Source: Candidatus Omnitrophota bacterium
GTDB lineage: Bacteria > Omnitrophota > Gorgyraeia > Pluralincolimonadales > Pluralincolimonadaceae
Reading direction: 5' to 3'
Length of the DNA: 64,000 bases
Assembly (NCBI GenBank): GCA_041651455.1
Contig: JBAZJG010000008.1
Coordinates: 283 to 64,282, forward strand
Numbering within the stretch: position 1 is the first letter of the stretch; each line of letters begins with the position of its first letter. Below, piece after piece: positions 1,992 through 50,593 of the stretch. Under the pieces are notes generated by a model. The model made no database searches and was not told the DNA's origin. It was given only the letters and a program-made list of their open reading frames with translations. The position numbers and the translations under genes were made by a program.

Positions 1992-4157
1992 TTAGAGCTT
2001 CCTTGCGGTCTTCCTGAGTTCGAATACTTCTATAACGTCGCCGGGTTTCAGGTCGTCGAAATTGCTGAGCGCGATACCGCACTCGAAGCCCTCCGCGACC
2101 TCCTTGACGTCGTCCTTGAAACGCTTGACCGAGCCGATCTTGCCTTCATAAACCTTGTCCTTGTCCCTCCAGAGGCGGCAACCGGCGTTCCTGGTTATCT
2201 TGCCCTTGGCGACAAAGCATCCCGCGATAGTCCCCGCCTTCGTGACCTTGAAGACCTGCCTGACATCGGCGCGGCCCATGAAGACCTCGGTTATAGTCGG
2301 GTCGAGCATACCTTCCATGGCGTTCTTTACGTCGTTTATCGCCTCGTATATGATCCTGTAAAGCCTGACATCAACCTTCTCGAGCCTGGCCTTCTGCTCG
2401 CCCTCAGGCGTATAATCCACATGGAAACCGATGATGATCGCGTTCGAAGCGGCGGCAAGCATGACGTCCGATTCGTTTATGCTCCCGGCGCCCGAATGTA
2501 TAACATCGAGCTTCACGTCGCTCGTGCCGAGGCCTTTCAGCGACTGTTCGATCGCTTCGACCGAACCCTGCACGTCGGCCTTTACTATTACCCTCAGTTC
2601 CTTGGCCTTGCCTTCCTTGACCTGCTGTGAAAGCTCTTCGAGCGTTATCCTCTTGACCGGCTGCATCTGCGCCGCCTTGGCTTCCTGCTGGCGCTTCTCG
2701 ACGAGCTCCCTGGCCGTCTTCTCGTCCGGGACGGTGAAGAATATGTCTCCCGCCTCGGGCAGTCCCGCGAGGCCGAGTATCTCGACCGGCTTCGACGGGG
2801 GCGCCTCATTGAGCCTGTGGCCGAGGTCATTTATCATCGCCCTGACCTTGCCGTAATGCAGGCCCGCCACGACTATATCGCCGGGCCTCAGCGTGCCCTT
2901 CTGTACGAGGACGGTAGCTATCGGGCCGCCGCCTTTGGATATCTTGCCTTCTATCACGACGCCCTTCGAATGCCCGGTCGGGTCGGCCTTCAACTCGAGC
3001 ATCTCCGCCTCGAGCAACAGCATCTCGAGAAGTTCATCGATGCCCTTGCCCGTCTTCGCCGAGACGCCGATCATGACGGTCTTTCCGCCCCAGTCCTCGG
3101 ACATGAGCCCTACTTCGTTCAGCTGCTTCTTGACCCTGTCCGGGTTCGCTTCGGGCTTATCTATCTTGTTCATCGCGACGACTATCGGTACCCCTGCCGC
3201 GCGCGCGTGGTCGATCGCCTCTTTCGTCTGGGGCATTACGCCGTCATCTGCGGCGACTACGAGTATTACGATATCCGTCGCCTGCGCGCCGCGCGCCCTC
3301 ATGGCGGTAAACGCTTCGTGGCCGGGGGTATCGAGGAATGTCACGTTCCCCTTGCCTACTTTGACCACATACGCGCCGATATGCTGCGTGATGCCGCCGG
3401 ATTCCTTGTCGGTAAGGCTCGACTTCCTGATAGCGTCGAGCAGCGAGGTCTTGCCGTGGTCCACATGGCCCATCAACGTTACGACCGGGCCGCGCGCGAC
3501 GAGCTTCGTCTTGTCCTCGACCTCGAAGGCCTTCAATATCTCCTGTTCCTGCGTGAGCGGCTTCTCGAACTCAAAACCGAAATCCACGGCGATAAGGTTC
3601 GCGACGTCGATATCCACCGCCTGGTTTATCGTCGCCATGACCTTCTGCCTCATCAACCTTACGATCAGGTCGTTAGGCCTCGCGTTTATCTTCACGGCGA
3701 GGTCCTTCAATGTCATCGGGAATTTAGCTATGAGTTTTACGGGTTCTTTTTTGGCTGCCGGCGCCGGGGGCGCAACAGGCACGGTTGGCTCCGCCGCGGG
3801 CATGGCTGGCTTCGCCGGCTCAGGCTTTACCGCGGGTTTGGCTTCGACCTTCGGAGCCGCCACGACCGGTTTTTGCTCGACTTTAGGGACGACAGGTGCG
3901 GGCTTCGGAATGACCGGCGCCGGAACCGGTTTGGCTTCAACCTTCGGCTCTACCTTGATCTCAACCTTCGCCTTGATTTCTTTTTTCTTAGGCGCGGCCT
4001 TTACCTTGGCTTCGGCCTTTGGCTTGGCTATTTTCTTTTCCTTGACGGCTTTGACTACGGCTTTTACGGCCTTGACGACTTTCGCCGCGGCCTTAGGTTC
4101 GGCTTTCTTGGTCTTCTTCACTTCCGCTTTCTTCGTCTCGTCTTTGGTTTTTTTCAT
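1992..4157 (-). CDS. infB: Translation initiation factor IF-2
   Basis: 721 aa. It has a K/A/P/V-rich low-complexity N-terminus, a GTPase G-domain (GHVDHGKTSLLD, DTPGHEAF, NKIDK) and the C-terminal IF2 beta-barrels. It directly follows nusA. Confidence 0.95.
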   Translation of the reverse strand: MKKTKDETKKAEVKKTKKAEPKAAAKVVKAVKAVVKAVKEKKIAKPKAEAKVKAAPKKKEIKAKVEIKVEPKVEAKPVPAPVIPKPAPVVPKVEQKPVVAAPKVEAKPAVKPEPAKPAMPAAEPTVPVAPPAPAAKKEPVKLIAKFPMTLKDLAVKINARPNDLIVRLMRQKVMATINQAVDIDVANLIAVDFGFEFEKPLTQEQEILKAFEVEDKTKLVARGPVVTLMGHVDHGKTSLLDAIRKSSLTDKESGGITQHIGAYVVKVGKGNVTFLDTPGHEAFTAMRARGAQATDIVILVVAADDGVMPQTKEAIDHARAAGVPIVVAMNKIDKPEANPDRVKKQLNEVGLMSEDWGGKTVMIGVSAKTGKGIDELLEMLLLEAEMLELKADPTGHSKGVVIEGKISKGGGPIATVLVQKGTLRPGDIVVAGLHYGKVRAMINDLGHRLNEAPPSKPVEILGLAGLPEAGDIFFTVPDEKTARELVEKRQQEAKAAQMQPVKRITLEELSQQVKEGKAKELRVIVKADVQGSVEAIEQSLKGLGTSDVKLDVIHSGAGSINESDVMLAAASNAIIIGFHVDYTPEGEQKARLEKVDVRLYRIIYEAINDVKNAMEGMLDPTITEVFMGRADVRQVFKVTKAGTIAGCFVAKGKITRNAGCRLWRDKDKVYEGKIGSVKRFKDDVKEVAEGFECGIALSNFDDLKPGDVIEVFELRKTARKL

Positions 4158-5342
4158 TTATTTTTTTGCCAGCTCTTTCGCGCTCTTGAGTATCTTTTCC
4201 GCGGTCTTCTCGCCGATACCCTTTATTTTAGTGAGTTCCTCGACCGATGACTCCGCTATCTTCGCGATAGTGACCAACCCTGCGCCTTCAAGAAGCGCCT
4301 TCGTCTTCGCACCGACACCGTCGACCGATGATATATCACCGGCCTCTTCCTTCGCGGCCGGCTCCGGCATCACCGCTTCAGCCGCGGCCTTTGCCGCGCC
4401 TTCGACGGCCGGCGTCTTCGGCTTGATATCTATCTCCCATCCGGTAAGCTTCGACGCGAGCCGCACGTTCTGGCCTTTCTTGCCGATGGCCAGGCTCAGC
4501 TGGTCGTCGTCGACCGTGACCTGCGCGGTCTTCGACTCCTTATCGAGCTTTATCGTAGATATCTTCGCGGGATTGAGCGCCGCGAGGACATATTCCTTCG
4601 TGTCGTCGCTCCAGCGGACGATATCTATCTTCTCGCCCTGAAGCTCTTTCACGATATTCTTCACGCGGGAGCCCCTCATTCCCACACAGGCGCCCACGCA
4701 GTCGATCTTCTCGTCCTTGGAGAATACCGATATCTTCGTCCTGTCGCCGGCTTCCCTCGATATGGACTTTATCTCGACGATGCCCTCGTATATCTCGGGT
4801 ATCTCGAGCTCGAATAGCTTCTTGACGAGGCCCGGGTTCGCGCGCGACAGCACTATCTGCGGGCCCTTGCCGGTCTTCTTTACCTCGAGCACATACGCCT
4901 TTATGCGGTCGCCCTGCCTGAAATTCTCTTTCGGCGACTGCTCGCTCTTCGGTATAAAACCCTCGGTCTTGCCGAGGTCGACGATTATATTACCCTTCTC
5001 GAACCGGTAGACCGTGCCGTTGACTACGTTGCCTACGCGGCTGTTGTAGTCGGTGAATATGACGTCGCGCTCCGCTTCGCGGATCTTCTGGATTATGATC
5101 TGCTTGGCGGTCTGCGCGGCAATGCGGCCGAAATCCTCGGACTTTATCTCCTTCGCGCCAGAGAATACCTTGACCTCGCCGTTCTTCCTGTCTATCTTGA
5201 CCGTGACGTCGTCGGACAGCGTGCCGAGCGCCTTCTTCGCGGCGCTGACAAGCGCGCTCTCGACGGCCGTCATCAGGATCTCGCGGTCTATCCCCTTGTC
5301 TCTCTCGAGGTGATCCAGTACTGTTAACAGTTCTCCGTTCAT
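4158..5342 (-). CDS. nusA: Transcription termination/antitermination factor NusA
   Basis: 394 aa. It has the NusA N-terminal domain (LTVLDHLERDKGIDREIL), S1 and KH domains, and a C-terminal HhH-like tail. It lies in the conserved rimP-nusA-infB order. Confidence 0.95.
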   Translation of the reverse strand: MNGELLTVLDHLERDKGIDREILMTAVESALVSAAKKALGTLSDDVTVKIDRKNGEVKVFSGAKEIKSEDFGRIAAQTAKQIIIQKIREAERDVIFTDYNSRVGNVVNGTVYRFEKGNIIVDLGKTEGFIPKSEQSPKENFRQGDRIKAYVLEVKKTGKGPQIVLSRANPGLVKKLFELEIPEIYEGIVEIKSISREAGDRTKISVFSKDEKIDCVGACVGMRGSRVKNIVKELQGEKIDIVRWSDDTKEYVLAALNPAKISTIKLDKESKTAQVTVDDDQLSLAIGKKGQNVRLASKLTGWEIDIKPKTPAVEGAAKAAAEAVMPEPAAKEEAGDISSVDGVGAKTKALLEGAGLVTIAKIAESSVEELTKIKGIGEKTAEKILKSAKELAKK

Positions 5343-5946: not shown

Positions 5947-7974
5947 TTATTCGACGATTTTTGAGTAAGATTCCGTCTCAATGGCCTTGTCCGTGAATAC
6001 GGTCCTGGAACCGGCGGCTTTCAGCGATTGCAGGCCGTCAATGACCGGATATACCGCCTTGTCAAGCCATAGCTGGACGAGCGCGGCGTCGAAATCCTTC
6101 TCCGGGCCGCCGCCCTGCCGGCCCCTCATCTGGAACTGGTCGAGCTGTTCCCTGTTCATCTCCAGCATCGACTCCTTCTCCTTGGCTTGCGCCACGAGCT
6201 CGGCCGCAGCTTCCGGCGTGTTGGCCGGGTCATTTATCTTCGCGTTAATGTCGGCCAGCTCTTTCTCGAGCGACTGTATCTCGGTATTCAGCTTATCCGT
6301 CTGCGCGGCCATCATCTCCTTGACCTTTTTCTGCTGTTCGGACATGAACGTGAGCCACCTTACGGCCCAATCGCAGATCCCCTTGCCCTTCTGCAGGATC
6401 GTGTCCACTTTAAGATAGACGACCTTGTTCGCCGGGTCCATAAGGCCGTTGTTGACCGACTTGAAATCCTCATTCTCAAAGAGCGATTTCGCGGCGCCGG
6501 AATACGAGTCCACCGAGCCCTTAATCGGCTCGCGCCCTAGCGAGAACAGGAAATAATCCCCGACGTAGCAGAACGCCGGCTGGAACGCCATGCCGAACGG
6601 CAGGTTCATGTATTTGATATCGACGCCCTTATAGGATTCGGACTGCATGCTCCCGCCCTGCGTGAACTGCGCGAGCATCTTGTCTATAGCTTCTTTCTTG
6701 TCGACCTTCAGGAAGACGACGAACTGCGGCATCGGTATCATCCCGTCAAGGTTTATGTCGGTCAGGCACATGCCCGTCTCGTCTCCGAGCGCCGGGATGA
6801 TGTCGTTCTCTATGCTTATGCCCATCTGTTTCTCGAATCCGGCTATCATGTCGTTGAAGGTCGGGCCCTGGTTCACCTTGGCCGCTTCATTGCCCATCTC
6901 TTCCTTTATGTATTTCCAGTACGCCTTCCATTCAAAGGTATCCCAGCTGTACCATATCGTATTTGCCGGGGCCAGTTTCATCGCCGTGTTCTTGCGCGGC
7001 TTGACCGAATAGAAATCCCTGAAGAACGGTATCAGCTTCGCCTTGTCGAGGGTTAACTGCATCCTCTCCTTGGTTATCTTGCCGGGATATTTCGCGTAGC
7101 TGAACGACTTGAACCCGCCGTAGACGCCGAGCGTCTTGTCGAGCTGGTCCCGGAAGATACGGCCCGGGTCCGGCTGGGCACCGCTTGCTTCCTTGGGCGC
7201 CGGTACGGCGTCCGCGATGTGCTTGATGCCTGCCATCATGAGCCCGATATCGCCGAAGGCGACCGTCTCCGCACCTTTAGGGAACTTCGCCATCGCGTCG
7301 GTATAGTCCTTGTCCTGCGCGAGCGAGAGGAACTTCTTGTCGGCCACGTCGCAGCAGGAGGTAGCCGCCTTCTTGCCCAGGCCTATGACGAGAATATCCT
7401 TTATCTGGACGTAGGCGATGCTGACCTTATCGTCGAGCTTGACGACGGTCAACTTCTTGCCCTTGTAATTCTCCTCCGCGACCTCGTATTTCCTGCCGGC
7501 CTTGTTGAATACCTTCGCGAGGAAATCTATGAATTTCGTCTCGGGCTTCACCCTCGTGGCCAGCGTGACATTCGAAGCCATTTCAATGACACCTGAGGGT
7601 GTCATCTCAACTTTGCCCGACGGGTAAACCGCTACCGCGATCTCCTTGCCGAAATATTTCTCGAGGACGAGCCCGCCTATGAAGCTTGAAAGCTCCGTCC
7701 GGGCGGCCCTGAAGTTCTCGACATCTTCCTTCTTCGCGCCGCTCTTCTCCATGAGCATCTCAATGTCTATCTTCTCGAGGTTCTTATAGAGACGCGAGGC
7801 CTTGAACTCCTTGACCTGCCTGTCCACCTCGGAGAACTTCATGAAAAAGACGGCATCCGCCGGAAGTACGGACTCGACGGGAGTCGGCTTGGACGCAAGC
7901 GTGAAAAGGACGGCCGCGGCAACCGCGACGGCCGCAACGGATATGGCTGTAATTATAATAGCGGATTTCTTCAT
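5947..7974 (-). CDS. Large N-terminally membrane-anchored extracytoplasmic protein with a C-terminal coiled coil (family not confidently recognised; native-GC copy of a paralog pair)
   Basis: 675 aa. It has an N-terminal TM segment (MKKSAIIITAISVAAVAVAAAVLF), a long globular region, and a C-terminal heptad-rich segment (LEKELADINAKIN...). About 58% GC. It is clearly paralogous to 10116..12125 (shared blocks SRLYKN, KEIAVAVYPSG, IPALGDE, LPFGMAFQPAFCYVGD, VRWLTF). Confidence 0.8.
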   Translation of the reverse strand: MKKSAIIITAISVAAVAVAAAVLFTLASKPTPVESVLPADAVFFMKFSEVDRQVKEFKASRLYKNLEKIDIEMLMEKSGAKKEDVENFRAARTELSSFIGGLVLEKYFGKEIAVAVYPSGKVEMTPSGVIEMASNVTLATRVKPETKFIDFLAKVFNKAGRKYEVAEENYKGKKLTVVKLDDKVSIAYVQIKDILVIGLGKKAATSCCDVADKKFLSLAQDKDYTDAMAKFPKGAETVAFGDIGLMMAGIKHIADAVPAPKEASGAQPDPGRIFRDQLDKTLGVYGGFKSFSYAKYPGKITKERMQLTLDKAKLIPFFRDFYSVKPRKNTAMKLAPANTIWYSWDTFEWKAYWKYIKEEMGNEAAKVNQGPTFNDMIAGFEKQMGISIENDIIPALGDETGMCLTDINLDGMIPMPQFVVFLKVDKKEAIDKMLAQFTQGGSMQSESYKGVDIKYMNLPFGMAFQPAFCYVGDYFLFSLGREPIKGSVDSYSGAAKSLFENEDFKSVNNGLMDPANKVVYLKVDTILQKGKGICDWAVRWLTFMSEQQKKVKEMMAAQTDKLNTEIQSLEKELADINAKINDPANTPEAAAELVAQAKEKESMLEMNREQLDQFQMRGRQGGGPEKDFDAALVQLWLDKAVYPVIDGLQSLKAAGSRTVFTDKAIETESYSKIVE

Positions 7975-8028
7975 GGGACTCTCCTTGGGTTAATTAAGAG
8001 GCATTATACCACAACTTTAGGGGAGTTT

Positions 8029-8292
8029 CTACGCCCATTCTGAGGCATATCTGTCAACAAGGTCTCTAATCATCCTCTGGTATTTCGTGTGATGCCTGTT
8101 TGCCTCACGCTTGAAAAATTCTATGCTAGATTTTTTCAGCGCGATTGTTATCTTCTGCGTCTCTTCCGACTTAGCAAGCTCAACCGGTGGCGGAAGAAGA
8201 TCCTTTATTCTCTTTAATCCGCCCACGGGCATGTCCGAAACATCAGTCCTCTTTTTCATAGTACGCTTTGCCCTTTCTCCAATAACCGGCAC
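8029..8292 (-). CDS. brnA: BrnA antitoxin (ribbon-helix-helix, type II toxin-antitoxin)
   Basis: 87-aa ORF. Its C-terminal half, QKITIALKKSSIEFFKREANRHHTKYQRMIRDLVDRYASEW, matches the BrnA pattern (ITIRLD..vl.wFK..A...G.gYQT.IN.iLR.y). It overlaps the upstream brnT 3' end by about 50 nt, so the true start may be the internal Met (MKKRTD or MPVGG). Confidence 0.75.
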   Translation of the reverse strand: MPVIGERAKRTMKKRTDVSDMPVGGLKRIKDLLPPPVELAKSEETQKITIALKKSSIEFFKREANRHHTKYQRMIRDLVDRYASEWA

Positions 8293-8527
8293 CGATTATC
8301 CTTATCATCCCCTGCCGGTATGTAAACCTTACTGTCATTACTTTATTCCCGGCCTTTCCGATACAGAAAAACCTTTCCTCATGCTCCGAATGGCCGGAAT
8401 CAACGTATATCTTTCTTTTTGTATCAAGGAAAGCTCGCGAGGCAATCTTAAAATCTACCCCGTGCTTCCTTATATTTTCCCTTTCTTTCGATTCGTCCCA
8501 GGTGAACATACCTGTGATTTTATCCAT
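8243..8527 (-). CDS. brnT: BrnT toxin (DUF497 ribonuclease, type II toxin-antitoxin)
   Basis: 94 aa: FTWDESKERENIRKHGVDFKIASRAFLD...DSGHSEHEERFFCIGKAGNKVMTVRFTYRQGMIRIIGAGYWRKGKAYYEK. This is the canonical BrnT/DUF497 signature (F.WD..K...N..KHGV.F.EA..vF.D......D..HS..EeR....G.......vvyt.R.....RIISAR.A...E...Y). The toxin-first gene order matches BrnTA. Confidence 0.8.
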   Translation of the reverse strand: MDKITGMFTWDESKERENIRKHGVDFKIASRAFLDTKRKIYVDSGHSEHEERFFCIGKAGNKVMTVRFTYRQGMIRIIGAGYWRKGKAYYEKED

Positions 8528-8531
8528 GTTT

Positions 8532-8560
8532 AGTATATCCTTTGGTCCTCATATTGTCAA
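8532..8560 (-). promoter_or_regulatory. Sigma70-like promoter directly upstream of brnT (-35 TTGACA 8560..8555, 17-nt spacer, -10 TATACT 8537..8532)
   Basis: The minus strand reads TTGACAatatgaggaccaaaggaTATACTaaacATG. The -10 ends 4 nt before the brnT ATG, which would give a leaderless or near-leaderless mRNA. The AAGGA inside the spacer could alternatively be the SD for a promoter lying further upstream in the AT-rich stretch 8560-8600. Confidence 0.4.
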
Positions 8561-8600
8561 TATTTATATACATACTATTATACATTATATTGGGCATAAT

Positions 8601-8642
8601 AAATCCCTCCTTTACCTATATAGACGGCATGAGGAGGGATTT
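8601..8642. repeat. Perfect 10-bp inverted repeat AAATCCCTCC (22-nt spacer) GGAGGGATTT between the stop of the 297-aa gene and the brnTA promoter
   Basis: Read directly: aaatccctcc tttacctatatagacggcatga ggagggattt, then tctttc. It could be a terminator hairpin for the upstream operon, or an operator for BrnA (RHH antitoxins bind palindromes). Confidence 0.6.
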
Positions 8643-8657
8643 TCTTTCAAATATTGC

Positions 8658-9533
8658 TTAAGGCGTATTATTAGTTTCGGTAATGCAAGTAAACTTGATT
8701 GGTAACGGGGCCGATTCAACTTCGAATCTTTTTCCTTTATATTTGCCTGATATTATGACAACTAAATCGTGCCTCTCTCCCGCTTTAACAAAATCGGAGA
8801 GTGGCTTGCATGGCCAGACGGAAGAATGCCTGTAATCCCAATCTAAGGAAAGGTCGTATGTGAATTCCTGCTCTTCGTTTGTCAGGGTAATACCTAATGG
8901 CACCGAGCGCCTGTGCGGACTGCTCCAAATCCTTTCCATATAAAAAAAGATGCTAACATCTTCTAATTCAACCGGTTCGCGGCTGCCCGTAGACAATAGC
9001 ACGCTGATCGGGATAGGGCCGAAAGGTGAGCATCTTTTGTTCTCTGTCTCAATACTCATGACGATGAAATCTTTTGGGACAATTGTCAAAAAAACCGTTT
9101 GCGACTTTATCCTGATCTTGTCATTGACCTCATATATTGCGGCAATGGAATAATCCCCCTTCCTGCTGAAATCATAGTAGCCCGATACTCTAATTGAAGT
9201 ATGAAATGTTCCTGATGGCGGGAAGCCTGGTTTTCTAATCAACTGTAATAAATCGCCATCGGGACCTTTAATTTTAAGATTCTCCACCAGTCCTTCTTTT
9301 TGGCAGGATATCTCGGATATTATATTTTTGTCCAATCCTTCAACCGGTTCAATATGAAATGCGAGTTCTATTGGTTCTCCTACATTGAATATCTCTTTCT
9401 GCAATTCAAGCCTGCAATGTAATCCGCCCGAAGAGATACCCCATTCTTCAGCAAAACATGTCATAAATATAAAATTGGCGGCGAATACCGATATTATCAA
9501 TAAATACTTCGTGTAATCCTTTTTAGGAGCCAT
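8658..9533 (-). CDS. Secreted hypothetical protein encoded directly after the PEP-CTERM protein gene
   Basis: The ORF is 8658..9551. The likely start is MAPKKDYTKYLLIISVFAANFIFMTCFA (signal peptide, possible lipobox) at 9533, 7 nt after the PEP-CTERM gene stop. About 40% GC. No recognisable domain. Confidence 0.55.
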   Translation of the reverse strand: MAPKKDYTKYLLIISVFAANFIFMTCFAEEWGISSGGLHCRLELQKEIFNVGEPIELAFHIEPVEGLDKNIISEISCQKEGLVENLKIKGPDGDLLQLIRKPGFPPSGTFHTSIRVSGYYDFSRKGDYSIAAIYEVNDKIRIKSQTVFLTIVPKDFIVMSIETENKRCSPFGPIPISVLLSTGSREPVELEDVSIFFYMERIWSSPHRRSVPLGITLTNEEQEFTYDLSLDWDYRHSSVWPCKPLSDFVKAGERHDLVVIISGKYKGKRFEVESAPLPIKFTCITETNNTP

Positions 9534-10116
9534 GGTTTTTCCTAAAACCAAGCAGCGGGAGGCCGGCGAGAATCAGTATAATGGTCGAGGGCTCGGGGAT
9601 AGGTGAAACCAGCAATTGGGCACTATGCCCCTCATTGTATTCCAGTGAGGAGAATATATCCGTTTTCGCATATTCGGAACGAATATTGAACCCGACAAAT
9701 GGGGTTGAAACTCCCTGCATAAAACTAGTAACTTCAAATAATGCGTCTTCGCCGTATCCAAGATCTTCCGGCAAAATAAGAACACCTAAATAATTCCCTG
9801 CATCATAATCAGATGATGTCAGCTGCCCGTCGCTGCTTCCATAGCCGTATATTTGAACGGTTTTACTCCAAAGAGGTAATCCGTATGGGTTGACAGACAA
9901 ATACGCTGTGCTTATTGGCCATAAAATCTGGCTGGTTGGGAATTCCACTACACCTCTTGTGGGTTCGCATGCCGTAAGATAGCAGTTGGTCAACACGCCC
10001 CCATCTAGGTACACTGAACCGTCATCGGAAGGATTGATGACTAACGCAGAAGCTGAAGCAACCTGAGTCATAGCCACGATAAATACGGCCATAATGCCGA
10101 ATTCGATCTTGTTCAT
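9523..10116 (-). CDS. PEP-CTERM sorting-domain protein (exosortase substrate)
   Basis: The C-terminus VSPIPEPSTIILILAGLPLLGFRKNHGS is a PEP motif, hydrophobic helix and basic cluster, which defines PEP-CTERM. The N-terminal signal peptide is MNKIEFGIMAVFIVAMTQVASASA. The ATG at 10116 overlaps the TAA stop of the upstream paralog by 1 nt (TAATG); the track start at 10140 is a TTG. Confidence 0.75.
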   Translation of the reverse strand: MNKIEFGIMAVFIVAMTQVASASALVINPSDDGSVYLDGGVLTNCYLTACEPTRGVVEFPTSQILWPISTAYLSVNPYGLPLWSKTVQIYGYGSSDGQLTSSDYDAGNYLGVLILPEDLGYGEDALFEVTSFMQGVSTPFVGFNIRSEYAKTDIFSSLEYNEGHSAQLLVSPIPEPSTIILILAGLPLLGFRKNHGS

Positions 10117-12125
10117 TATTTGAAAAAGGTCTCTGTACAAATCACGTTCTCCGTGAAGACTGTCTTTGAACTTGAGACATTATTCGAAGAAAGGCCTTCC
10201 ATGATAGGATAGGCCGCCTTTTCCACCCAAAGCCTTATCAAGGGCACATCCATATCCTGTCTCGTTACCGCGACACGATGTTTCTCCTGCTCTTCCAAGT
10301 GGGCCAACTGCTCTTTGTCGATCTTCAACATGGAATTCTTGTCCCATATCTTTAAATCGAGTTCAGATTTTACCTCTGCCAAAACAGCGGGGTCGGCACG
10401 CTGCGCTTTCATATCTGCCAGCTCCTTTTCCAGTTCCTTGATGCCTGCCCTTAACCTGTCCATCTGGAGCAATATCATCTCTTCGTATTTCTTCTGTTTT
10501 TCGTAGTACGCCTTGTTCTCTTCGGAAATATACGTAAGCCACCTCAGACCCCAATCGCAAAAATCCCTGGCTTCCCGCAACAAAGCATCGGTATCCACAA
10601 AACGAACCTGGTTTGCCGGCTTGTCGGGGTTGCTACTAACAAGCCTGAAATCCTCGCTGTCAAGAAGCGACTTCGCGGATCCGGAACAAGAATCTATGGA
10701 ATTCTTTAATGGCATGCGGCCCAAAGAGAGCAAAAGATTATCTCCAACGTAACAATATGCCGGTTGGAACGCGAGGCCGAATGGGAGGTCCAGGTATTTT
10801 ATCTCAACATTATTGTACGTCTCCGTTTTCACGGCCTCCTCCCCTTCGATGTCACTCCGGAAGAATTTGCCCAAAACCAGGTCTATCGCCTGTTTGTCGT
10901 TTACTTTGACTATATAGATGAACTGCGGTGATGGTATAAGGCCGTCGTAATTCACGTCTATCAGGCACAAGGCCCCTTCATCCCCGAGAGCGGGTATCAG
11001 GTCATTCTCTATGCTGAAGTCCACCCAACTCTCGAACTCGGCAACGATATCGTCAAATCCGTGGGACTCAACCCCTTCCGGCGTTCCTTTTATCATGGCT
11101 TCCTTCAGGTACTGCCAGTATGCCCTCCACGCGACCGTATCCCATCCGTACCATATCGCATTAGGCGGGATGAACTTAAGCGTATTGTTCCCGCGCGGGG
11201 CCACTGAATAGCTTTCCCGGAGGAACGGGATCATCTTGGATCTGTCGATTTTTACGGTCATAACGCTCTTTTTTATCTCCCCGGGATATCTGGCGTAGAA
11301 GAAGGTCCCGAAACCGCCGTATTCGCCCAGGCGCAGGCCCATATTTTCCTTGAACGCTTTTAATATATCCGCTGATATCCCTTTCCCGGCCGGTTCCGGG
11401 ATGGCGGTTACGGCATTTTTCAATCCTTCCGCTATTCTCCCGATATCACCGAAAGCGGCCATCTCGGCGCCTTTCTCAAGCCCTGACACCGCCCCAATGA
11501 AATCCTTGTCCTGCGCCAACGCGGGAATTTTCCTGCCGGCGGCATCATAGCAGGACATGACAACCATCTTATCCGTGCCCGCCACCATCACATCCTTGAT
11601 CCGGACCATAAACACGCTCGTCCTGTCCCCTATCTTCACGACGGATATCTTCCTGCCGCTGCAGTCCTCTTCTTTCTCCTCAAATATCTTTCCCGGTTTT
11701 TTGAACATAATGGCAAACAGGTCGGCTATTTTTGATTCCGGTTTCACCTTCGCGGCGAATAATACGCCCGAAGGATACACGGCAACGGCTATCTCCTTCC
11801 CGAAATACTTCTCAAAAGGAAGCCCGTCGATAAAACCCGATATGTCCGCTTTCCATACTCCTACAGCTTGCGCCTGTTCCTTCTTAGCTCCGCTCTTTTC
11901 AAGCAGCATTCCTATATCGATGGCTTCCACATTCTTATAGAGCCTCGATGACCTAAACTCCTCGAATTGCCTGTCGGCATCGAACAATTTCACGAAGAAG
12001 ACCGGGCCGGCAGGCAGCGCGGACTCGATCGCCTGCGGTTTTGCGATATAACCGACATAAATGCCGGCCGCCGTCGCCGCAATGGCAATAAAAATGACTG
12101 TGACTGCTATAAACGGTTTTTTCAT
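10116..12125 (-). CDS. Large membrane-anchored coiled-coil protein, lower-GC xenologous paralog of 5947..7974
   Basis: 669 aa with the same architecture (N-terminal TM, shared motif blocks, C-terminal coiled coil ELEKELADMKAQ...). About 48-50% GC versus about 58% for the other copy. Its start overlaps the TPR gene stop (ATGA at 12122-12125). Confidence 0.8.
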   Translation of the reverse strand: MKKPFIAVTVIFIAIAATAAGIYVGYIAKPQAIESALPAGPVFFVKLFDADRQFEEFRSSRLYKNVEAIDIGMLLEKSGAKKEQAQAVGVWKADISGFIDGLPFEKYFGKEIAVAVYPSGVLFAAKVKPESKIADLFAIMFKKPGKIFEEKEEDCSGRKISVVKIGDRTSVFMVRIKDVMVAGTDKMVVMSCYDAAGRKIPALAQDKDFIGAVSGLEKGAEMAAFGDIGRIAEGLKNAVTAIPEPAGKGISADILKAFKENMGLRLGEYGGFGTFFYARYPGEIKKSVMTVKIDRSKMIPFLRESYSVAPRGNNTLKFIPPNAIWYGWDTVAWRAYWQYLKEAMIKGTPEGVESHGFDDIVAEFESWVDFSIENDLIPALGDEGALCLIDVNYDGLIPSPQFIYIVKVNDKQAIDLVLGKFFRSDIEGEEAVKTETYNNVEIKYLDLPFGLAFQPAYCYVGDNLLLSLGRMPLKNSIDSCSGSAKSLLDSEDFRLVSSNPDKPANQVRFVDTDALLREARDFCDWGLRWLTYISEENKAYYEKQKKYEEMILLQMDRLRAGIKELEKELADMKAQRADPAVLAEVKSELDLKIWDKNSMLKIDKEQLAHLEEQEKHRVAVTRQDMDVPLIRLWVEKAAYPIMEGLSSNNVSSSKTVFTENVICTETFFK

Positions 12126-13165
12126 GGGGTTGGCCTTTTTTTAGGGATCTGCAGTACATTATCTTTGTTCTCTTCCGCCTTCCTGAAATACATATCCGCT
12201 TTCTCGCGGTCGCCTTTTTCCGCGTATATCTCCCCGAGATACTGGTAAACCTCATACGATATAGAATTAAGACCGACGGCCGTTTCCAGGTACTCCCTCG
12301 CGCTCTCCTTGTCTCCGAGCCTGTAAGCGGTAATGCCGAGATTGTCCCATGTGTCTACGCCATACGGGTTATATATAACTGACATCGTGAAATCGCTCAA
12401 TGCCTGCTTGTAATTGCCTTGGCAAAAATACGTGAACCCGCGGTTATTCATGCCTTTATAGCTGAATGGATCTATAACAAGCGCCCGGTTATAATCCCTG
12501 ACAGCCTTATCAAACTCGCCCATATCCAGATATACCCCGGCACGGGCATAATATCCGCTAAACTCTTTCGGTCTCAGTTTTATTAACTCGCTAAAATCCT
12601 TGACGGCTTTTTCATATTCGCCCGCTTCCGAATAAGATATCCCGCGATTCCATAGCGTATTCGCGCTTACCGGGTCAGCGCTCAATGCCTCATTATAGCT
12701 TTCTATTGCAGAATTATACTCGCCTACATCGGTCATGGCGTTGCCCAGGTTATTATACGGAAGTTTGAAATTCGGGTTCATTTCGACCGCTTTTTGGAAG
12801 TCCGCAATAGCTTTTTCATTCTCCCCTTTTTGCCTGTACGCGCAACCGCGGTTATAATAGAGGTTCGGATTCCTGGAATTTGCCTCAAGGCCTTTTGAGT
12901 ATTCGGCAATGGCCTTGTCGTAATCACCCATTTTTATATACGCGTTCCCTGCCATTTTATAGGCATCATAGAACATGGGGTTTACCTCTATGGCCTTATC
13001 GAACTCCTTGATAGCTTCTTCATACCGGTGTTTGTTGAGATGGACGACGCCGCGGTTGAAATACTGGTTTGCGGTAAGTTTTTCTTCCCTTACTTCTTCA
13101 GCAAGGCAGCTTGAGGAGAGAATACATGCTGTTACGTAGAAAAGTAAAACCTTTGAAAGTTTCAT
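12122..13165 (-). CDS. Secreted tetratricopeptide-repeat (TPR) protein
   Basis: 347 aa. Signal peptide MKLSKVLLFYVTACILSSSCLA, then about eight 34-aa TPR units (recurring AxxxYxxAIxxxP / NxG.AY patterns). Confidence 0.85.
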   Translation of the reverse strand: MKLSKVLLFYVTACILSSSCLAEEVREEKLTANQYFNRGVVHLNKHRYEEAIKEFDKAIEVNPMFYDAYKMAGNAYIKMGDYDKAIAEYSKGLEANSRNPNLYYNRGCAYRQKGENEKAIADFQKAVEMNPNFKLPYNNLGNAMTDVGEYNSAIESYNEALSADPVSANTLWNRGISYSEAGEYEKAVKDFSELIKLRPKEFSGYYARAGVYLDMGEFDKAVRDYNRALVIDPFSYKGMNNRGFTYFCQGNYKQALSDFTMSVIYNPYGVDTWDNLGITAYRLGDKESAREYLETAVGLNSISYEVYQYLGEIYAEKGDREKADMYFRKAEENKDNVLQIPKKRPTP

Positions 13166-13205
13166 TTCGCACCTCGAAACGTTTTTAATTCTTTTCTAAT
13201 TAATA

Positions 13206-13244
13206 GGGACGCATGACCTGGGACGCCCCGTTATGACCTGTCCC
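13206..13244. promoter_or_regulatory. Direct-repeat element in the TPR operon upstream region: GGGACGC-ATGACCTG ... GGACGCC-ccgtt-ATGACCTG-TCCC (ATGACCTG copies at 13213 and 13233, 20-bp spacing; GGGAC/GTCCC inverted ends)
   Basis: Read directly from the 146-bp gap between the hydrolase stop and the TPR gene start. The two-helical-turn spacing suggests a dimeric or tandem DNA-binding regulator site. A 12-bp perfect palindrome AACGGAACCGTT follows at 13273-13284. Confidence 0.35.
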
Positions 13245-13311
13245 TTTTATCGCATCCCATATTTCTTATAAAAACGGAACCGTTGGCACTATTAGCAGTT
13301 TCATTTTCGCA

Positions 13312-14250: not shown

Positions 14251-14799
14251 TTAAAATACGCTCTCCAGACAAAAACACGTCAATTCCTCTTCTTTGCCCC
14301 ATTCCACACAGGTAGGTTTGTTCCTGCACTCGGGGCATAGCAGGGTAATGTCGTCCTTATTAATATCAAGTGTACCACGCGTCTGGTGAAGGTCAAATAG
14401 CAATTTCAGGTACTTGCCGGCCACGAGGCGATGCAGGCTGTCCTTCTTCTTGAGCCCTAACCATTGGAAGACGCCCCGGTCGTTGCGTGAAGTATTGCAG
14501 GTAGGACACGACAGAACCGAATTATCCGCCGAATCGGGGCCGCCTCGGCTTCGTGGGATGAGGTGATCGACTTGTAGGCCTTCGAGCGCGCCGCAAAAGA
14601 CGCACTCCTTATCCAACTCCTGCTCCCTCTGCCACTCCCTTATCGTGCCGGACATCGTAGCGCTGCCGTCGCGCAGGGCCTTGAACCGGTCCGTGACAAA
14701 TCCGTAGTTGATGTTGCCCTTGAACGCGCTACGGGATATAAGCTTGGCGTATTCGTAGAGGATTTCTTCTTTTATGGTTTTGACGTAGGGTGGGGGCAT
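14251..14799 (-). CDS. HNH endonuclease with extra Cys-rich zinc-ribbon segments
   Basis: 182 aa. HNH core: CVFCG...QVDHLIPRSRGGPDSADNSVLSCPTCNTSRNDRG. A second Cys cluster follows (CPECRNKPTC...CFC). The roughly 70-aa N-terminus is unassigned. It sits at the edge of the low-GC defence-like block. Confidence 0.7.
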   Translation of the reverse strand: MPPPYVKTIKEEILYEYAKLISRSAFKGNINYGFVTDRFKALRDGSATMSGTIREWQREQELDKECVFCGALEGLQVDHLIPRSRGGPDSADNSVLSCPTCNTSRNDRGVFQWLGLKKKDSLHRLVAGKYLKLLFDLHQTRGTLDINKDDITLLCPECRNKPTCVEWGKEEELTCFCLESVF

Positions 14800-14870: not shown

Positions 14871-16565
14871 TTAGATTTTATACTTTTCGCTACATTGCTT
14901 AACTAATTTGTTCGATTTCGATAATTCGTTATCACTTAAATCTAATTTAAGGGAATCTATTATTTTGATTATACTCACTATTGCTTTGTTGAATTTTTTA
15001 TTTGAATTGATTATTTTTAAGCAATTTTGACAATATTCTTCGGCTTTCTTGCTTTCAAACGGAGGACATTTTTCTTTCATAATTTCATAGCGCAGCATCA
15101 TTAGGATAAAATATCTCAGCTTCTTGAACTTCCTATCTAGCTGCCCACGTCTGAATAGTTTATCTATGTTATATAACGCATAGGCGGACGTGTAGTACGG
15201 TAACATATAGTGATTATCTTTAAAGAGGTCGGGACCGAATTCAGAAAATAAGGTTCCAAAATATCTTGTTGCCATATCTGGTTTGTCAAAATAAAAACTG
15301 GCCATAGTCTTTATTTGGGTTGTTTTATCAATTATTCGTTTCTTCTCTACTCCTTTACTATTATATTGTTTAGAACGCCTTTCATAATAAAGCCTTTGCT
15401 TTTCTGGAAAAGTAGTATAATAGTCTTCCAAGCTTTTTTGAAAGTCTGAAAATGCTATCAAATCTTGTTCTTTTATTTCAGTTTGTCTGTTTGTAGACCG
15501 AATTACTTTAGATGTTAAATCTTTATTGTTTGTGGATATTAATTTTAGGGGCAATTTTACTTTTGGTGACACTAATGATCTGTTTTCAAACAATACATGA
15601 GATGTTTGGCAACCATTAATTATTTGGTAGCTGCTTATGGTAAATCTATCTCTTGTGGTTAGCATTGATTCAGCAACTATCGTTATACCATTGTTCAAAA
15701 CAACAAAGGCTTCTTTATCTTTTGTTTTTAAAGTATTTTGAATTTCCAAATTGACCTTATTGTCTCCCTGAAAATCTCTTACATTATCATAAAATACATT
15801 GGGAATTAAATCGCCGTTATCATCTGTCATTAATTTAATTATTGTTTCGGCCTCGATAATTCCCAAATAAGATTCTGCCACTCCAGTTATTACCGGCAGT
15901 GTAACTCTATTCGGGAATTCGAAAGCTTTTGTAACCGCCTGACCTATTTTTTTGTAAATGCTCTGTATCTCCCTAGCGTCGACAAGGCTTATTATAGTAT
16001 TAGAAAACAAGTTCTCATTTTCGATATTACTTTTCATCTCTTCTGTCTTAGCTTCGATATTATCATCTTCTGTCTTCACACCAAGAGTCACATAATATAG
16101 ATGGCATATTGGTTTCTCCTTAAGCAAATTCGAATTATCTATCAATTTGTTAAATAGCCTGATCTTTGAACGGGCTATTTTAGGCCATTTTATTTTAGGA
16201 TTTTCACTAACAAAATCTGAAACGGCCCAACCAAAGTTTCCAATTTCTTTTGTTTCGAAGCTTTTAGAGGTCTTAGATTGAATAAAAACAACCTCTGCGT
16301 GAACATCTCTATGCGATTTCAAGAAGTCTTCCAGCATATCTTGAGTTTCAATAACTTGTCTATTCAATATCAAAGCAAAGCCATCTAAGCCCAGAGCATC
16401 GTCTTTTCCTATATTTAATTCCTCGATATCGAACCGTTCTTCAGTCTTATTTTCAAGTAATGCAAAATTTACAAAATGCTCAAATTGCGTAGACTCATTT
16501 TTTTCATTTTCCAGCCCATTCGATGATAAAAATTCATTAAGATAACTTCTGGTAATTCTATCCAT
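14871..16565 (-). CDS. AIPR-like abortive-infection (phage resistance) family protein (family assignment tentative)
   Basis: 564 aa with no Walker motifs. The central block VVLNNGITIVAE ... YQIINGCQT resembles the conserved NG.QT core of the AIPR family; this is my recollection and no search was run. It is very AT-rich (about 33% GC) and has a strong SD (GGAGGAAAAC) before the ATG. Confidence 0.5.
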   Translation of the reverse strand: MDRITRSYLNEFLSSNGLENEKNESTQFEHFVNFALLENKTEERFDIEELNIGKDDALGLDGFALILNRQVIETQDMLEDFLKSHRDVHAEVVFIQSKTSKSFETKEIGNFGWAVSDFVSENPKIKWPKIARSKIRLFNKLIDNSNLLKEKPICHLYYVTLGVKTEDDNIEAKTEEMKSNIENENLFSNTIISLVDAREIQSIYKKIGQAVTKAFEFPNRVTLPVITGVAESYLGIIEAETIIKLMTDDNGDLIPNVFYDNVRDFQGDNKVNLEIQNTLKTKDKEAFVVLNNGITIVAESMLTTRDRFTISSYQIINGCQTSHVLFENRSLVSPKVKLPLKLISTNNKDLTSKVIRSTNRQTEIKEQDLIAFSDFQKSLEDYYTTFPEKQRLYYERRSKQYNSKGVEKKRIIDKTTQIKTMASFYFDKPDMATRYFGTLFSEFGPDLFKDNHYMLPYYTSAYALYNIDKLFRRGQLDRKFKKLRYFILMMLRYEIMKEKCPPFESKKAEEYCQNCLKIINSNKKFNKAIVSIIKIIDSLKLDLSDNELSKSNKLVKQCSEKYKI

Positions 16566-16651
16566 GTTTTCCTCCAGTTATATTTTGCTTTTAGTGACTC
16601 ATGACTTTAGAACGCTTCACTATAGAACTTGCCTCTTTTGACACGTCTCGT

Positions 16652-16879
16652 TTATTCTTTCTTTTTTGACCTCACGATCCTTATATCCCCTTTTAAATCT
16701 TTAACTTCATAACTTTCCGAAAGCAATAATCTTAATTTATTGGAATTGTAGGTTTTACTCCAAAAGGGTCTATCAAAATGCACTTCACCTCGCGCTGAAC
16801 CGGCATGGTGAATATGGAGAATCCTTCCTTTTTCAGATAAAAGAGATAAATACCTTTTACAATATTTAATTTTTATCAT
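16652..16879 (-). CDS. Small hypothetical protein (75 aa) between the AIPR-like gene and the 2-TM protein gene
   Basis: The ORF MIKIKYCKRYLSLLSEKGRILHIHHAGSARGEVHFDRPFW... has His-rich and basic character and low GC. It could be a small nucleic-acid-binding partner or a gene remnant. No confident homology. Confidence 0.3.
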   Translation of the reverse strand: MIKIKYCKRYLSLLSEKGRILHIHHAGSARGEVHFDRPFWSKTYNSNKLRLLLSESYEVKDLKGDIRIVRSKKKE

Positions 16880-16954
16880 CGTTCTCGCCTAGCCCATTTT
16901 ACCGTTTGTTTAAGTGGCAGAATCCAAGTACAATTAATCCATTTATTAGAATAT

Positions 16955-17731
16955 TTAACTAATACCGAATTCCTTTTTAAGACCATTAAAATCGTATATC
17001 TGTATATTTACTATCATATCTTTTCCTAATAGAAATTGATCAATTCTATTTTTTAATATTTCCTTTTCTTCATCATTAATCGGCGTTACGATTATAAGAT
17101 AAAAGAATAAATCTCTCTCGCTTTTTTCTAGGTTTCTCCATATATCCTCAAAATACTTTAAAGTTTTTCCTAGCCCATTAAATGGCGTATTTAATCTTGG
17201 AAAGTACTTTACTTCAAATACTGAGAACTGCAAGCTTGAATTTATTATGCCATCAGCGTAATATTTATTGCCTTTAAGTTCAAAACTTCTTTGTTTAAGA
17301 AACATATCTCCATAATCGCTTTCTAACTTTTTAAGAGCTAACTCTTCAGCAAGAAAATATTCAACTTTCGGATTTAATATTATACTTGCAGTAGCACTAC
17401 TTGTTTTATCTTCGGTAATATCTGAAACATCTTTATCCTTTTTATCTATTACATCTTTTATAGTTAAAGGTTTAACATTTTTTATCAAACCAGAAAATGC
17501 TTCATCTGTCTTAAAATCTGAAGGTGCGTATAGCACATGGTGTTTAAGGATTAATACTGAAAAAAACAGCATAACAAGCAAAACAGGGAATATCATGACA
17601 AACCAAACAAACAAATTTTGTATATTATCCGGAAGAATAGGCAATACGGCGCTTCCGCAAATCTCTGATATGCCGGCAAAGATTGCGATAATTGTTAAAG
17701 GATTTTTTATAGTATTTTTGGGTAAGTACAT
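16955..17731 (-). CDS. Membrane protein with two N-terminal TM helices and a cytoplasmic domain of about 170 aa (unrecognised; effector-like)
   Basis: 258 aa. TM1 is LTIIAIFAGISEICGSAVLPIL and TM2 is FVWFVMIFPVLLVMLFFSVLIL, followed by a charged soluble domain. About 30% GC, an SD (GAGGTG) upstream, and a TTGACA hexamer about 45 nt upstream. Confidence 0.6.
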   Translation of the reverse strand: MYLPKNTIKNPLTIIAIFAGISEICGSAVLPILPDNIQNLFVWFVMIFPVLLVMLFFSVLILKHHVLYAPSDFKTDEAFSGLIKNVKPLTIKDVIDKKDKDVSDITEDKTSSATASIILNPKVEYFLAEELALKKLESDYGDMFLKQRSFELKGNKYYADGIINSSLQFSVFEVKYFPRLNTPFNGLGKTLKYFEDIWRNLEKSERDLFFYLIIVTPINDEEKEILKNRIDQFLLGKDMIVNIQIYDFNGLKKEFGIS

Positions 17732-43942: not shown

Positions 43943-44362
43943 TTAACGCCCGACCCTGAGGGTCCTGAGCTCGTCGCCGACCTTAAGCAGGACCGTATCC
44001 TTGTTTATCTCCAGGACCTTCGCACCGGATATCTCGTCGCCGACCTTTAGCATCTTTCCGTCAATGAGGCATACGGGCTTCTTCGCGTCCCAGAAGATCC
44101 CGGACAGGGAAAGGTCCCCGGTCGCCTGTACCGGCACGCTGCCTACAGCGAACGGGTCCCTGCCCCACGACGGGAAGGAGCTTTTGCCGGGTTCGGTAAC
44201 AGCCGCAGGCCTGTTTGCGGGTGCGGCAACGGCGGCGCCTGCCCCCTTGCTTTGAGCCGCTTTCCTGGACGACCTCGATTTCATGACCGCGGCGAAAAAG
44301 AACACGACGAAGGCAATTATGACCGCCGCAAGTATCATGAGTTGCCGTTTATTTTTGTCCAC
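43943..44362 (-). CDS. PilP-like / GspC-like small pilus-assembly protein
   Basis: 139 aa. N-terminal TM segment, an Ala/Pro-rich linker, and a C-terminal beta-domain (LSGIFWDAKKPVCLIDGKMLKVGDEISGAKVLEINKDTVLL). It is the last gene of the pilM-N-O cluster. Confidence 0.4.
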   Translation of the reverse strand: MDKNKRQLMILAAVIIAFVVFFFAAVMKSRSSRKAAQSKGAGAAVAAPANRPAAVTEPGKSSFPSWGRDPFAVGSVPVQATGDLSLSGIFWDAKKPVCLIDGKMLKVGDEISGAKVLEINKDTVLLKVGDELRTLRVGR

Positions 44363-44957
44363 TGTCTTCCTCTATGGAATATACGGAGACCGTCATACGG
44401 ACCTTCAGCTTGGGGAAGATCCTTTCGTCCTTCGATATCTGAACGTTGTCGACGGTCGCGAACCCGCTCTCAAGGTTGTCCACGGCATGCAGGTACTCGC
44501 CGATGCTCTTGAACGAGGCGCGCATGTCTATGCCTATCGGGAGCACCGAATACCGGAACCCGTCCGCCGACTGGCGCGAACCCGGCGTGGCACTCCTCTC
44601 TTCCTGCGGGTCTATCGTTATGAATTCGATATTCAGCGCCTTGCCCTTCCTCGTCAATTCGTCTATTACCGCCGACGTGTTGCTCCTGGACGGCAATTTC
44701 CTCTTCAGGACGGCGGATTCCGCTTCTATGCCCGTTTTGTCTATCTTATATGCGGCGCTCTGCTTTATCCTGCTTTCCGCGAGCGTCGCCTCCATCTGCT
44801 TCCATTCCTTCTTCTTGGAAATTATCTTCTTTTGCGTCGGGGAGATGACCAGCGCAAAGACCGCGGCAAAAACCATGATGCCGGCCGCAGACATCGCGAT
44901 GGCCTTCTTCCGTGCCAGTAATCCGGAAGGCAGTGTTATCCTGTTTAAAATTCGCAT
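44349..44957 (-). CDS. Type IV pilus assembly protein PilO-like
   Basis: 202 aa. N-terminal TM segment, a coiled coil, then a ferredoxin-like periplasmic domain. Its position after the PilM-N gene supports the call. Confidence 0.6.
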   Translation of the reverse strand: MRILNRITLPSGLLARKKAIAMSAAGIMVFAAVFALVISPTQKKIISKKKEWKQMEATLAESRIKQSAAYKIDKTGIEAESAVLKRKLPSRSNTSAVIDELTRKGKALNIEFITIDPQEERSATPGSRQSADGFRYSVLPIGIDMRASFKSIGEYLHAVDNLESGFATVDNVQISKDERIFPKLKVRMTVSVYSIEEDSGQK

Positions 44958-48036: not shown

Positions 48037-48039
48037 CTG

Positions 48040-49358: not shown

Positions 49359-49375
49359 CTTACTCCTCCTTTTTG

Positions 49376-50590: not shown

Positions 50591-50593
50591 CGT

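Follow-up and report, generated by a model that had tools for sequence, protein, structure and literature searches.

Is a run of four overlapping envelope genes, one of which encodes a protein with a PEP-CTERM sorting tail, a dedicated sorting or surface-display module, or is it an ordinary accessory operon? The question is raised by the minus strand of positions 13165..8658 in a 64,000-nucleotide stretch of a Candidatus Omnitrophota contig (JBAZJG010000008.1; hereafter the window, positions 1-64000, to which coordinates refer unless a related locus is named). On balance we favour the second answer: in this diderm Omnitrophota bacterium the genes would probably make up an accessory envelope operon of the ordinary kind, put together through recombination at a variable chromosomal slot, with a PEP-CTERM cargo that is sorted by an exosortase. 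Four exported proteins are encoded by a single co-oriented, overlapping and terminator-bounded unit, a conserved PEP-CTERM tail follows what is modelled as a lectin-like beta-sandwich, and comparison with relatives shows that the block carrying these genes was acquired by recombination at a variable site.

Direct reading of the reverse complement gives four consecutive open reading frames (ORFs), all co-oriented and overlapping:

13165..12122, minus strand: gene 1, a tetratricopeptide repeat (TPR) protein of 347 aa, with a 146-nt spacer upstream
12125..10116, minus strand: gene 2, a membrane-anchored DUF3352 paralogue of 669 aa, joined to gene 1 by ATGA (4-nt overlap)
10116..9523, minus strand: gene 3, the PEP-CTERM protein of 197 aa, joined to gene 2 by TAATG (1-nt overlap)
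9533..8658, minus strand: gene 4, a secreted protein of 291 aa, overlapping gene 3 by 11 nt

An earlier note on this DNA had described the first two junctions correctly: the TGA stop of the TPR ORF overlaps the ATG of the 669-aa ORF (12125), and the TAA of the latter (10118..10116) shares one base with the ATG that opens the PEP-CTERM gene (10116..10114). The third junction has to be corrected. Gene 4 had been started 7 nt past the gene 3 stop, but its best start is the ATG at 9533, inside gene 3, which has AGGA 9-12 nt upstream and yields an 11-nt overlap with the gene 3 stop at 9525..9523. The lengths of 205 aa and 297 aa formerly given for genes 3 and 4 are likewise those of the longest TTG-started ORFs, the likely products being of 197 aa and 291 aa; on identical contigs, gene 3 is publicly called at 197 aa and gene 4 at 291 or 268 aa.

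Export signals are found on all four products, as cleavable-looking signal peptides in genes 1, 3 and 4 and as an uncleaved-looking anchor in gene 2. The proposal of an envelope operon is therefore borne out by the export of all four products, by the co-oriented, overlapping genes and by the purifying selection that acts on the TPR gene and the DUF3352 paralogue. The start/stop overlaps are nothing special for this genome: neighbours overlap in 19 of the 54 adjacent gene pairs of the window, and spacing is at most 15 nt in 38 of 54 (70%). The genome is extremely compact; all credible genes of the window share the minus strand, with a negative GC skew over its whole length.

Two non-coding elements flank the unit:

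13166..13311, minus strand: upstream spacer of 146 nt, with the Shine-Dalgarno sequence of gene 1 (GAGGTG) and direct and inverted repeats
8642..8601, minus strand: hairpin after gene 4 (-21.3 kcal/mol, z = -3.74, 0 of 200 shuffles folding as well)

The spacer contains small direct repeats (ATGACCTG, twice) besides the inverted ones, and its final 30 nt preceding the gene 1 ATG are common to the related loci L003 and L015. A sigma-70 promoter for the operon was sought there and rejected, the upstream spacer having no minus-strand match and counts equal to those of shuffled sequence. The hairpin, with an 11-bp stem, recurs 3' of the PEP-CTERM gene in L005 (8279-8347) and L003 (3516-3616) and 3' of gene 4 in L014 (~1590-1640), where one pair has changed in a compensatory manner from U-A to C-G. 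It is probably the transcription terminator of the operon and would mark its ancestral end.

Gene 3 is the cargo on which the interpretation depends. Its residues 1-24 were read from the sequence as a signal peptide (MNKIEFGIMAVFIVAMTQVASASA/LV, ending ASASA/LV, the slash marking the cleavage site), and its AlphaFold2 (AF2) model (pLDDT 89) has an N-terminal helix at 3-17, a beta-sandwich domain in residues 25-171 and a tail helix at 178-194. The C-terminus (...SPIPEPSTIILILAGLPLLGFRKNHGS) comprises a PEP motif, a hydrophobic helix and a basic cluster, and the tail is encoded as follows:

9526..9603, minus strand: PEP-CTERM sorting tail, P172-S197, PIPEPSTIILILAGLPLLGFRKNHGS, which also holds the Shine-Dalgarno sequence and ATG of gene 4

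This tail passes the TIGR02595 model (20.9 bits, cut-off 16) and falls slightly under the PF07589 cut-off (19.2 against 20.7 bits), a model on which the homologues P0025 and P0039 reach 30 and 29 bits. The family consists of ~200-aa proteins, with 55 homologues at 36-76% identity, one of them in a metagenome-assembled genome (MAG) named Sedimentisphaerales. Among 51 homologues, 41 retain the tail by a strict pattern, about five more have variants of it and 5 are without it. The earlier note had proposed the tail and had named its loss in homologues as an observation that would speak against it; with some 45 of 51 homologues keeping it and TIGR02595 passed, the claim holds. Because it is conserved across the family, we regard the sorting tail as real, and because the signal features tested are present, gene 3 can be placed in the PEP-CTERM class. 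The products of genes 2 and 3 are both on record from a Candidatus Omnitrophota MAG at NCBI, on a contig of 84 kb, where that of gene 3 already bears the name 'PEP-CTERM sorting domain-containing protein'.

Apart from the tail, no Pfam or NCBIfam domain was found in gene 3, and the family profile has no match among PDB sequences. At the level of structure, Foldseek relates the mature domain to a chondroitin-sulfate-binding carbohydrate-binding module (CBM; 8wab, E = 2.4e-6, TM-scores 0.54/0.59) and to an alginate-binding one (7vbo, E = 1.9e-5, TM-scores 0.51/0.55). It thus shares the beta-sandwich fold of CBM96/CBM100-like modules and can be superposed on their solved members, but identity to them is just 10-15%, with no sequence-profile match, and the fold here makes up a free-standing, tail-anchored protein instead of a polysaccharide lyase module. 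The mature domain models, at fold level only, as a CBM96/CBM100-like, lectin-like glycan-binding beta-sandwich. A comparison may also be drawn with the PepA-type small PEP-CTERM matrix proteins of floc-forming Zoogloea (NF033554): gene 3 is likewise small, secreted and located beside a TPR gene, and the mature parts of both have a plausible matrix- or glycan-binding role. Its score on the PepA model is, however, only 19 bits against a cut-off of 80.

What kind of cell would sort such a protein, and with what enzyme? The lipopolysaccharide (LPS) genes of the window include those of keto-deoxyoctulosonate (KDO)-pathway type (DAHP_synth_1, SIS, CTP_transf_3), LptC with an ABC ATPase, a lipid A acyltransferase and heptosyltransferases; an OmpA-family protein is also encoded, and LpxK lies just beyond the high end. 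These genes, together with a cluster resembling a type II secretion system or type IV pilus (T2SS/T4P), indicate that the host is a diderm. The T2SS/T4P-like cluster (44349-52294, minus strand; MshEN-T2SSE ATPase, T2SSF, pseudopilins, PilM, PilO) lies beside the LPS genes and could be relevant to surface display or attachment.

The PEP-CTERM/exosortase system consists of a cargo (TIGR02595/PF07589) and an enzyme of the EpsH/Xrt type (PF09721/TIGR02602), and PEP-CTERM proteins reportedly occur in genomes that have an exosortase, a relationship ascribed to Haft et al. in 2006. The locus conforms to this system in the signal peptide of gene 3, in its C-terminal PEP motif, helix and basic cluster, and in the diderm host; it differs in that no exosortase, EpsI, PrsK/PrsR or exopolysaccharide (EPS)-synthesis genes are found nearby. 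In the source data of Seymour et al. 2023, the entries for Omnitrophota genome 58, which belongs to an order (B26-G9) different from that of the present host, include both PF07589 and PF09721 and none for PF11832, the DUF3352 model. Going by those entries, the system exists in the phylum and can do there without DUF3352. For an exosortase in the present host, which the earlier note took the tail to imply and which the family background would lead one to expect, they are the sole positive evidence, and indirect. The main text of Seymour et al. 2023 makes no mention of the PEP-CTERM/exosortase system, and no description of it in Omnitrophota or Omnitrophica was found in the PMC open-access and bioRxiv papers searched.

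For the favoured operon we envisage the following route. The gene 3 product would be exported by Sec and kept in the inner membrane by the helix of its C-terminal tail. An exosortase whose gene lies elsewhere in the genome would then cut it at the PEP motif, after which the cargo would be delivered to the cell surface or the exopolysaccharide layer. There the lectin-like domain might bind a glycan, possibly an acidic one, either in the cell's own matrix or on the surface of a host cell. Omnitrophota are ultra-small, probably host-dependent bacteria, and it is this lifestyle proposed for the phylum that makes a host-cell surface a possible target. The TPR and DUF3352 proteins, as conserved neighbours, would have their own periplasmic task and are not an established part of the sorting.

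Several observations weigh against this interpretation. Neither the 64-kb window nor the 8.5 kb that follow its high end (~72 kb in all) yielded an exosortase, in a search that covered nearly all minus-strand ORFs of at least 180 aa in the window with Pfam/NCBIfam or precomputed Pfam. The window contains a single PEP-CTERM tail, whereas genomes with an exosortase usually carry many. The CBM assignment is a matter of fold likeness, at TM-scores of ~0.55 and 10-15% identity. Finally, the recurrence in relatives of a PEP-CTERM gene between the TPR and DUF3352 genes could imply a closer functional tie than the favoured operon allows for.

This last point directs attention to genes 1 and 2. Gene 1 begins with a signal peptide (MKLSKVLLFYVTACILSSSCLA/EE), followed by ~8 TPR repeats that match the Pfam models TPR_1, TPR_2 and TPR_8 (E 1e-51 to 1e-64); its GC content is 0.456 against 0.56 in core genes, and it shares 79% identity with the TPR protein of L003/L015 at a ratio of nonsynonymous to synonymous substitution rates (dN/dS) of 0.10. 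Identities as PrsT, PilW, Tgl or MamA were tried and rejected, the scores being far under the cut-offs and the repeats generic. PrsT, the TPR lipoprotein of the XrtA system (TIGR02917), deserves separate mention: gene 1 scores 125 bits against a cut-off of 312, and PrsT is ~900 aa long and found among exosortase and EPS genes, whereas gene 1 encodes only 347 aa. In place of an XrtA-type EPS locus, the neighbours here are a hydrolase, HNH, AbiU, BrnT/BrnA and DUF3352 genes. The sequence thus identifies gene 1 as a putative periplasmic TPR protein other than PrsT, and these scores lend no support to a resemblance with PepA or PrsT that would go past the tail and the generic repeats.

The paralogy that had been claimed for gene 2 is upheld, the 669-aa protein sharing 46% identity over its full length (E = 0) with the 675-aa protein encoded at 7974..5947. 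No Pfam model matches gene 2, and PF11832 does not do so even with E relaxed to 10; the L015 orthologue, 73% identical, reaches 35 bits on this model (cut-off 26.8), and most of the other database homologues of gene 2 carry PF11832. Gene 2 is therefore a homologue of DUF3352 proteins that stays under the threshold of the Pfam model. With dN/dS of 0.16, it is under purifying selection, as is gene 1. The AF2 model of gene 2 (pLDDT 77) has a transmembrane helix at 4-27, an alpha/beta body, a long coiled-coil hairpin formed by helices 512-576 and 583-615, and a C-terminal beta-hairpin. Its best and sole significant PDB match by Foldseek is TP0453 of Treponema pallidum (3k8h, E = 4e-5), an outer-membrane-associated, membrane-interacting lipoprotein that resembles part of the alpha/beta body; the TM-score on the target is only 0.46 over 252 residues, and TP0453, at 252 residues, is too short for the long coiled coil of gene 2, which also adds an N-terminal anchor. 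A reading of the coiled coil as Wzc-like, i.e. as that of a polysaccharide co-polymerase (PCP), was rejected at Foldseek probabilities of only 0.02-0.06. No mention of DUF3352 was found in the PMC open-access and bioRxiv papers searched.

Are these neighbours conserved as a module? Comparison with eleven related Omnitrophota loci showed that DUF3352-rimP-nusA is kept in every one long enough to show the region. Its anchor is the native DUF3352 gene, which lies directly upstream of rimP-nusA-infB:

7974..5947, minus strand: native DUF3352 gene, 675 aa (PF11832 65 bits; GC 0.558 and GC at third codon positions, GC3, 0.79, both core-like)

An envelope protein gene is here paired with a core transcription/translation operon. 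Upstream of this anchor the loci differ as follows:

L017, L018, L019: TPR, PEP-CTERM (~203-206 aa), DUF3352, with mostly overlapping stops and starts
L005/L006/L007/L021: TPR, PEP-CTERM, a glycoside-hydrolase (GH)-like protein of 512 aa, DUF3352
L016: TPR, GH-like protein, DUF3352
L022: TPR, DUF3352
L004, L020: unrelated genes, DUF3352
window, L003/L015: TPR, second DUF3352, PEP-CTERM ..., native DUF3352

The cargo of L017/L018/L019 and of L005/L006/L007/L021 belongs to a family different from that of gene 3. Homology between the two families was considered and rejected, hhalign aligning only the C-terminal ~36 columns, i.e. the tail and a few preceding residues. L014 carries the other cargo family, and yet it is 89.8% identical in DNA to 9603..8030 of the window, a segment that holds the tail, gene 4, BrnT and BrnA. 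The homology begins at 9603, the first codon of the tail (P172), and the mature domains upstream are unrelated. The start of the match at the tail leads us to conclude that the mature domains have been exchanged, with a breakpoint exactly at the sorting tail. The locus evolves by swapping the mature domain at the tail boundary beside a conserved TPR-DUF3352-rimP-nusA backbone. The tail itself is strongly conserved within the clade, across both cargo families, and a pattern scan finds one tail in the 64-kb window and one in each related locus carrying it.

Such a pattern invites the alternative that the TPR and DUF3352 proteins are a periplasmic escort or docking pair for the adjacent PEP-CTERM cargo, acting together with or downstream of the exosortase, and that the cargo genes are exchangeable cassettes joined at the tail, in other words a dedicated display module. 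We consider this rather unlikely, although several observations speak for it. In the window, L003, L017, L018, L019 and L005/L006/L007/L021, the PEP-CTERM gene stands between TPR and DUF3352 or next to them, and stop and start codons often overlap; the two cargo families have only the tail in common, and the swap breaks exactly there; no other PEP-CTERM tails occur in the Omnitrophota DNA examined; and the DUF3352 model resembles TP0453, a membrane- and lipid-interacting lipoprotein. Opposed to this are TPR-DUF3352 pairs without cargo (L016, L022) and DUF3352-rimP without TPR (L004, L020), and the adjacency of genes in a very compact genome is in itself weak evidence. Genome 58, going by its entries, combines an exosortase and PEP-CTERM proteins with no PF11832.

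The cargo homologues of other lineages, including that of the MAG named Sedimentisphaerales, also argue against a display module, being solitary on long contigs among unrelated neighbours, with neither TPR nor DUF3352 beside them. In L011, a non-Omnitrophota locus, a cargo homologue directly follows a second PEP-CTERM protein, which has an FGE-sulfatase domain (3412-4350 and 4368-4958); PEP-CTERM genes cluster in that organism. Gene 4, too, speaks against it: this rare accessory stands beside a different cargo in L014 and has no PEP-CTERM gene with it in L024. As a set, the four genes do not recur elsewhere, and a conserved four-gene module was rejected, given the unrelated neighbours of the cargo homologues and of the gene 4 homologue in L024. 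What is conserved, and only within the clade, is TPR plus DUF3352, often with a PEP-CTERM gene. The hint of the earlier note at a dedicated sorting or display module therefore survives in part, through the recurrent TPR-cargo-DUF3352 order, and fails on the solitary cargo homologues and the cargo-less TPR-DUF3352 pairs; the comparison lends a dedicated TPR/DUF3352 sorting module weak support. A bolder proposal is that interchangeable PEP-CTERM surface proteins dock in the periplasm on a conserved pair of TPR and DUF3352 proteins, with the tail-coding sequence as the recombination joint of a cassette-type surface variation; it is in our opinion doubtful. If true, it would describe a surface-variation system in host-dependent nanobacteria and would give DUF3352 its first functional context.

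The favoured operon requires a slot in which genes have been exchanged, and the composition of the region indicates its limits:

8018..13296, no strand assigned: divergent 5.3-kb block with genes 1-4 and BrnT/BrnA

This block lies between a conserved alpha/beta-hydrolase gene and the native DUF3352 gene. Its genes have GC of 0.41-0.50 and GC3 of 0.44-0.62, against 0.56-0.58 and 0.73-0.79 in the hydrolase, native DUF3352 and rimP genes. The flanks share 80-88% DNA identity with L019, L022 and L005; matches to these loci within the block are restricted to the TPR and DUF3352 genes, at ~64-68%, and to two short stretches common with L005, one of 38 nt in the TPR gene and the other the hairpin region of 67 nt. 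The block replaces the TPR-PEP-CTERM pair that relatives bear upstream of DUF3352-rimP-nusA. The sequence TGCGAAA(A)TGAAACT occurs twice, at 13297-13310, right after the hydrolase stop, and at 13158-13171, at the real TPR start, and the 9 nt 'ATGAAACTG' directly past the hydrolase stop are the TPR start of L022. This 9-nt copy may be a relic of the replaced native TPR gene, for which it is weak evidence.

Such a slot could also be filled without any functional relationship. In that case the interval between hydrolase and DUF3352 would be a recombination hotspot collecting unrelated accessory genes for defence, toxin-antitoxin and surface functions, and the tail of gene 3 might be a relic out of use, provided that this small genome lacks an exosortase. 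The interval does hold AbiU, HNH and BrnT/BrnA genes and differs in every relative; the composition of the block is foreign; gene 4 is under relaxed constraint (dN/dS 0.45); and no exosortase lies in the window or the adjoining 8.5 kb. In L003 (1245-3509) the DUF3352 paralogue is frameshifted and the PEP-CTERM gene has lost an internal part, but L015 (1065-3071), apparently from the same organism, has an intact DUF3352 paralogue followed by a scaffold gap. Since the L015 copy is intact, the defects of L003 are possibly assembly errors, and the discrepancy reflects either population-level gene decay or such an error. A gapless tandem duplication of DUF3352 in L015 was rejected because of a run of N in the scaffold at that point. 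Juxtaposition without shared function is further contradicted by the purifying selection on the TPR gene and the DUF3352 paralogue, and by the strong conservation of the tail in the clade across two cargo families, not expected of an unused relic. We consider it improbable.

A transfer of the block as a small integrative element, stabilised by BrnT/BrnA and carrying the envelope genes as passengers, would account for the low GC and the sharp boundaries, and the toxin-antitoxin pair indeed moves with gene 4 (L014) and with a cargo remnant (L003). No integrase, transposase, tRNA gene or flanking repeats were found, however, and the TPR and DUF3352 genes of the block are homologues of resident genes at the same site. 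This homology fits homologous replacement from a related lineage over site-specific integration, and a mobile element appears very improbable to us. The toxin-antitoxin genes are the following:

8527..8243, minus strand: BrnT toxin (PF04365, 76 bits)
8259..8029, minus strand: BrnA-like antitoxin (PF14384, 15 bits, under the cut-off of 26.1)

As in type II BrnT/BrnA systems, a toxin gene overlaps a small antitoxin gene, here directly downstream of gene 4; the antitoxin differs from the BrnA family in staying under the Pfam cut-off. A near-consensus sigma-70-like site (TTGACA-17-TATACT) at 8560..8532 precedes the overlapping pair, which is a transcription unit apart from the four-gene operon within the same low-GC block. 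The pair accompanies gene 4 in L014 and a cargo remnant in L003.

The variability extends further upstream. The minus-strand order is proS, AbiU block, HNH, alpha/beta hydrolase, genes 1-4, BrnT/BrnA, DUF3352, rimP, nusA, infB. In the AbiU block (14871-17731, minus strand), which has GC of 0.30-0.32 against 0.56, an abortive-infection gene of AbiU/AIPR type (PADLOC, E = 4e-125) is accompanied by a 75-aa ORF and by a gene for a 258-aa membrane protein without homologues in the libraries searched; the block has the appearance of a separate insertion of foreign defence genes beside proS. The HNH endonuclease gene (14251-14799, minus strand, 182 aa) has core-like GC, and at its site L005 (4993-5163) and L021 retain only a C-terminal remnant of 53-56 aa. 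These remnants imply that the interval after proS gains and loses genes repeatedly.

Gene 4 is less constrained than genes 1 and 2 (dN/dS 0.45) and has a GC content of 0.412. Its product has a signal peptide ending FMTCFA/EE and no Pfam match, and probably consists of two beta-sandwich lobes; the family profile matches the first strands of the arrestin C-domain weakly (E = 3e-4), a mere hint of such lobes. A word-indexed search returned just one close homologue, at 85% identity, a HMMER search of 1.8 billion representatives gave 19 matches at E < 1e-3, and a metagenome scan with a narrow gene 4 alignment returned a single locus. In L024, a GC-rich metagenome contig without a PEP-CTERM tail, a 44% homologue has neighbours that we take, by eye from their translations, to be LemA-, HtpX- and glycoside-hydrolase-like. 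Gene 4 belongs to a rare and unnamed family.

For the knowledge of PEP-CTERM sorting as such, the locus adds little: the tail had already been caught by automatic annotation, and the other operon genes encode a TPR protein of a generic kind, a DUF and a hypothetical protein that is rarely found. A PEP-CTERM cargo is now documented in Omnitrophota, and its predicted lectin-like domain could serve to attach the cell to a matrix of glycans or to the surface of a host. The tail-joined exchange of cassettes and the recurrent TPR-cargo-DUF3352 order beside rimP-nusA are additional features of an understudied phylum and, if the neighbourhood reflects function, would provide a first handle on DUF3352.

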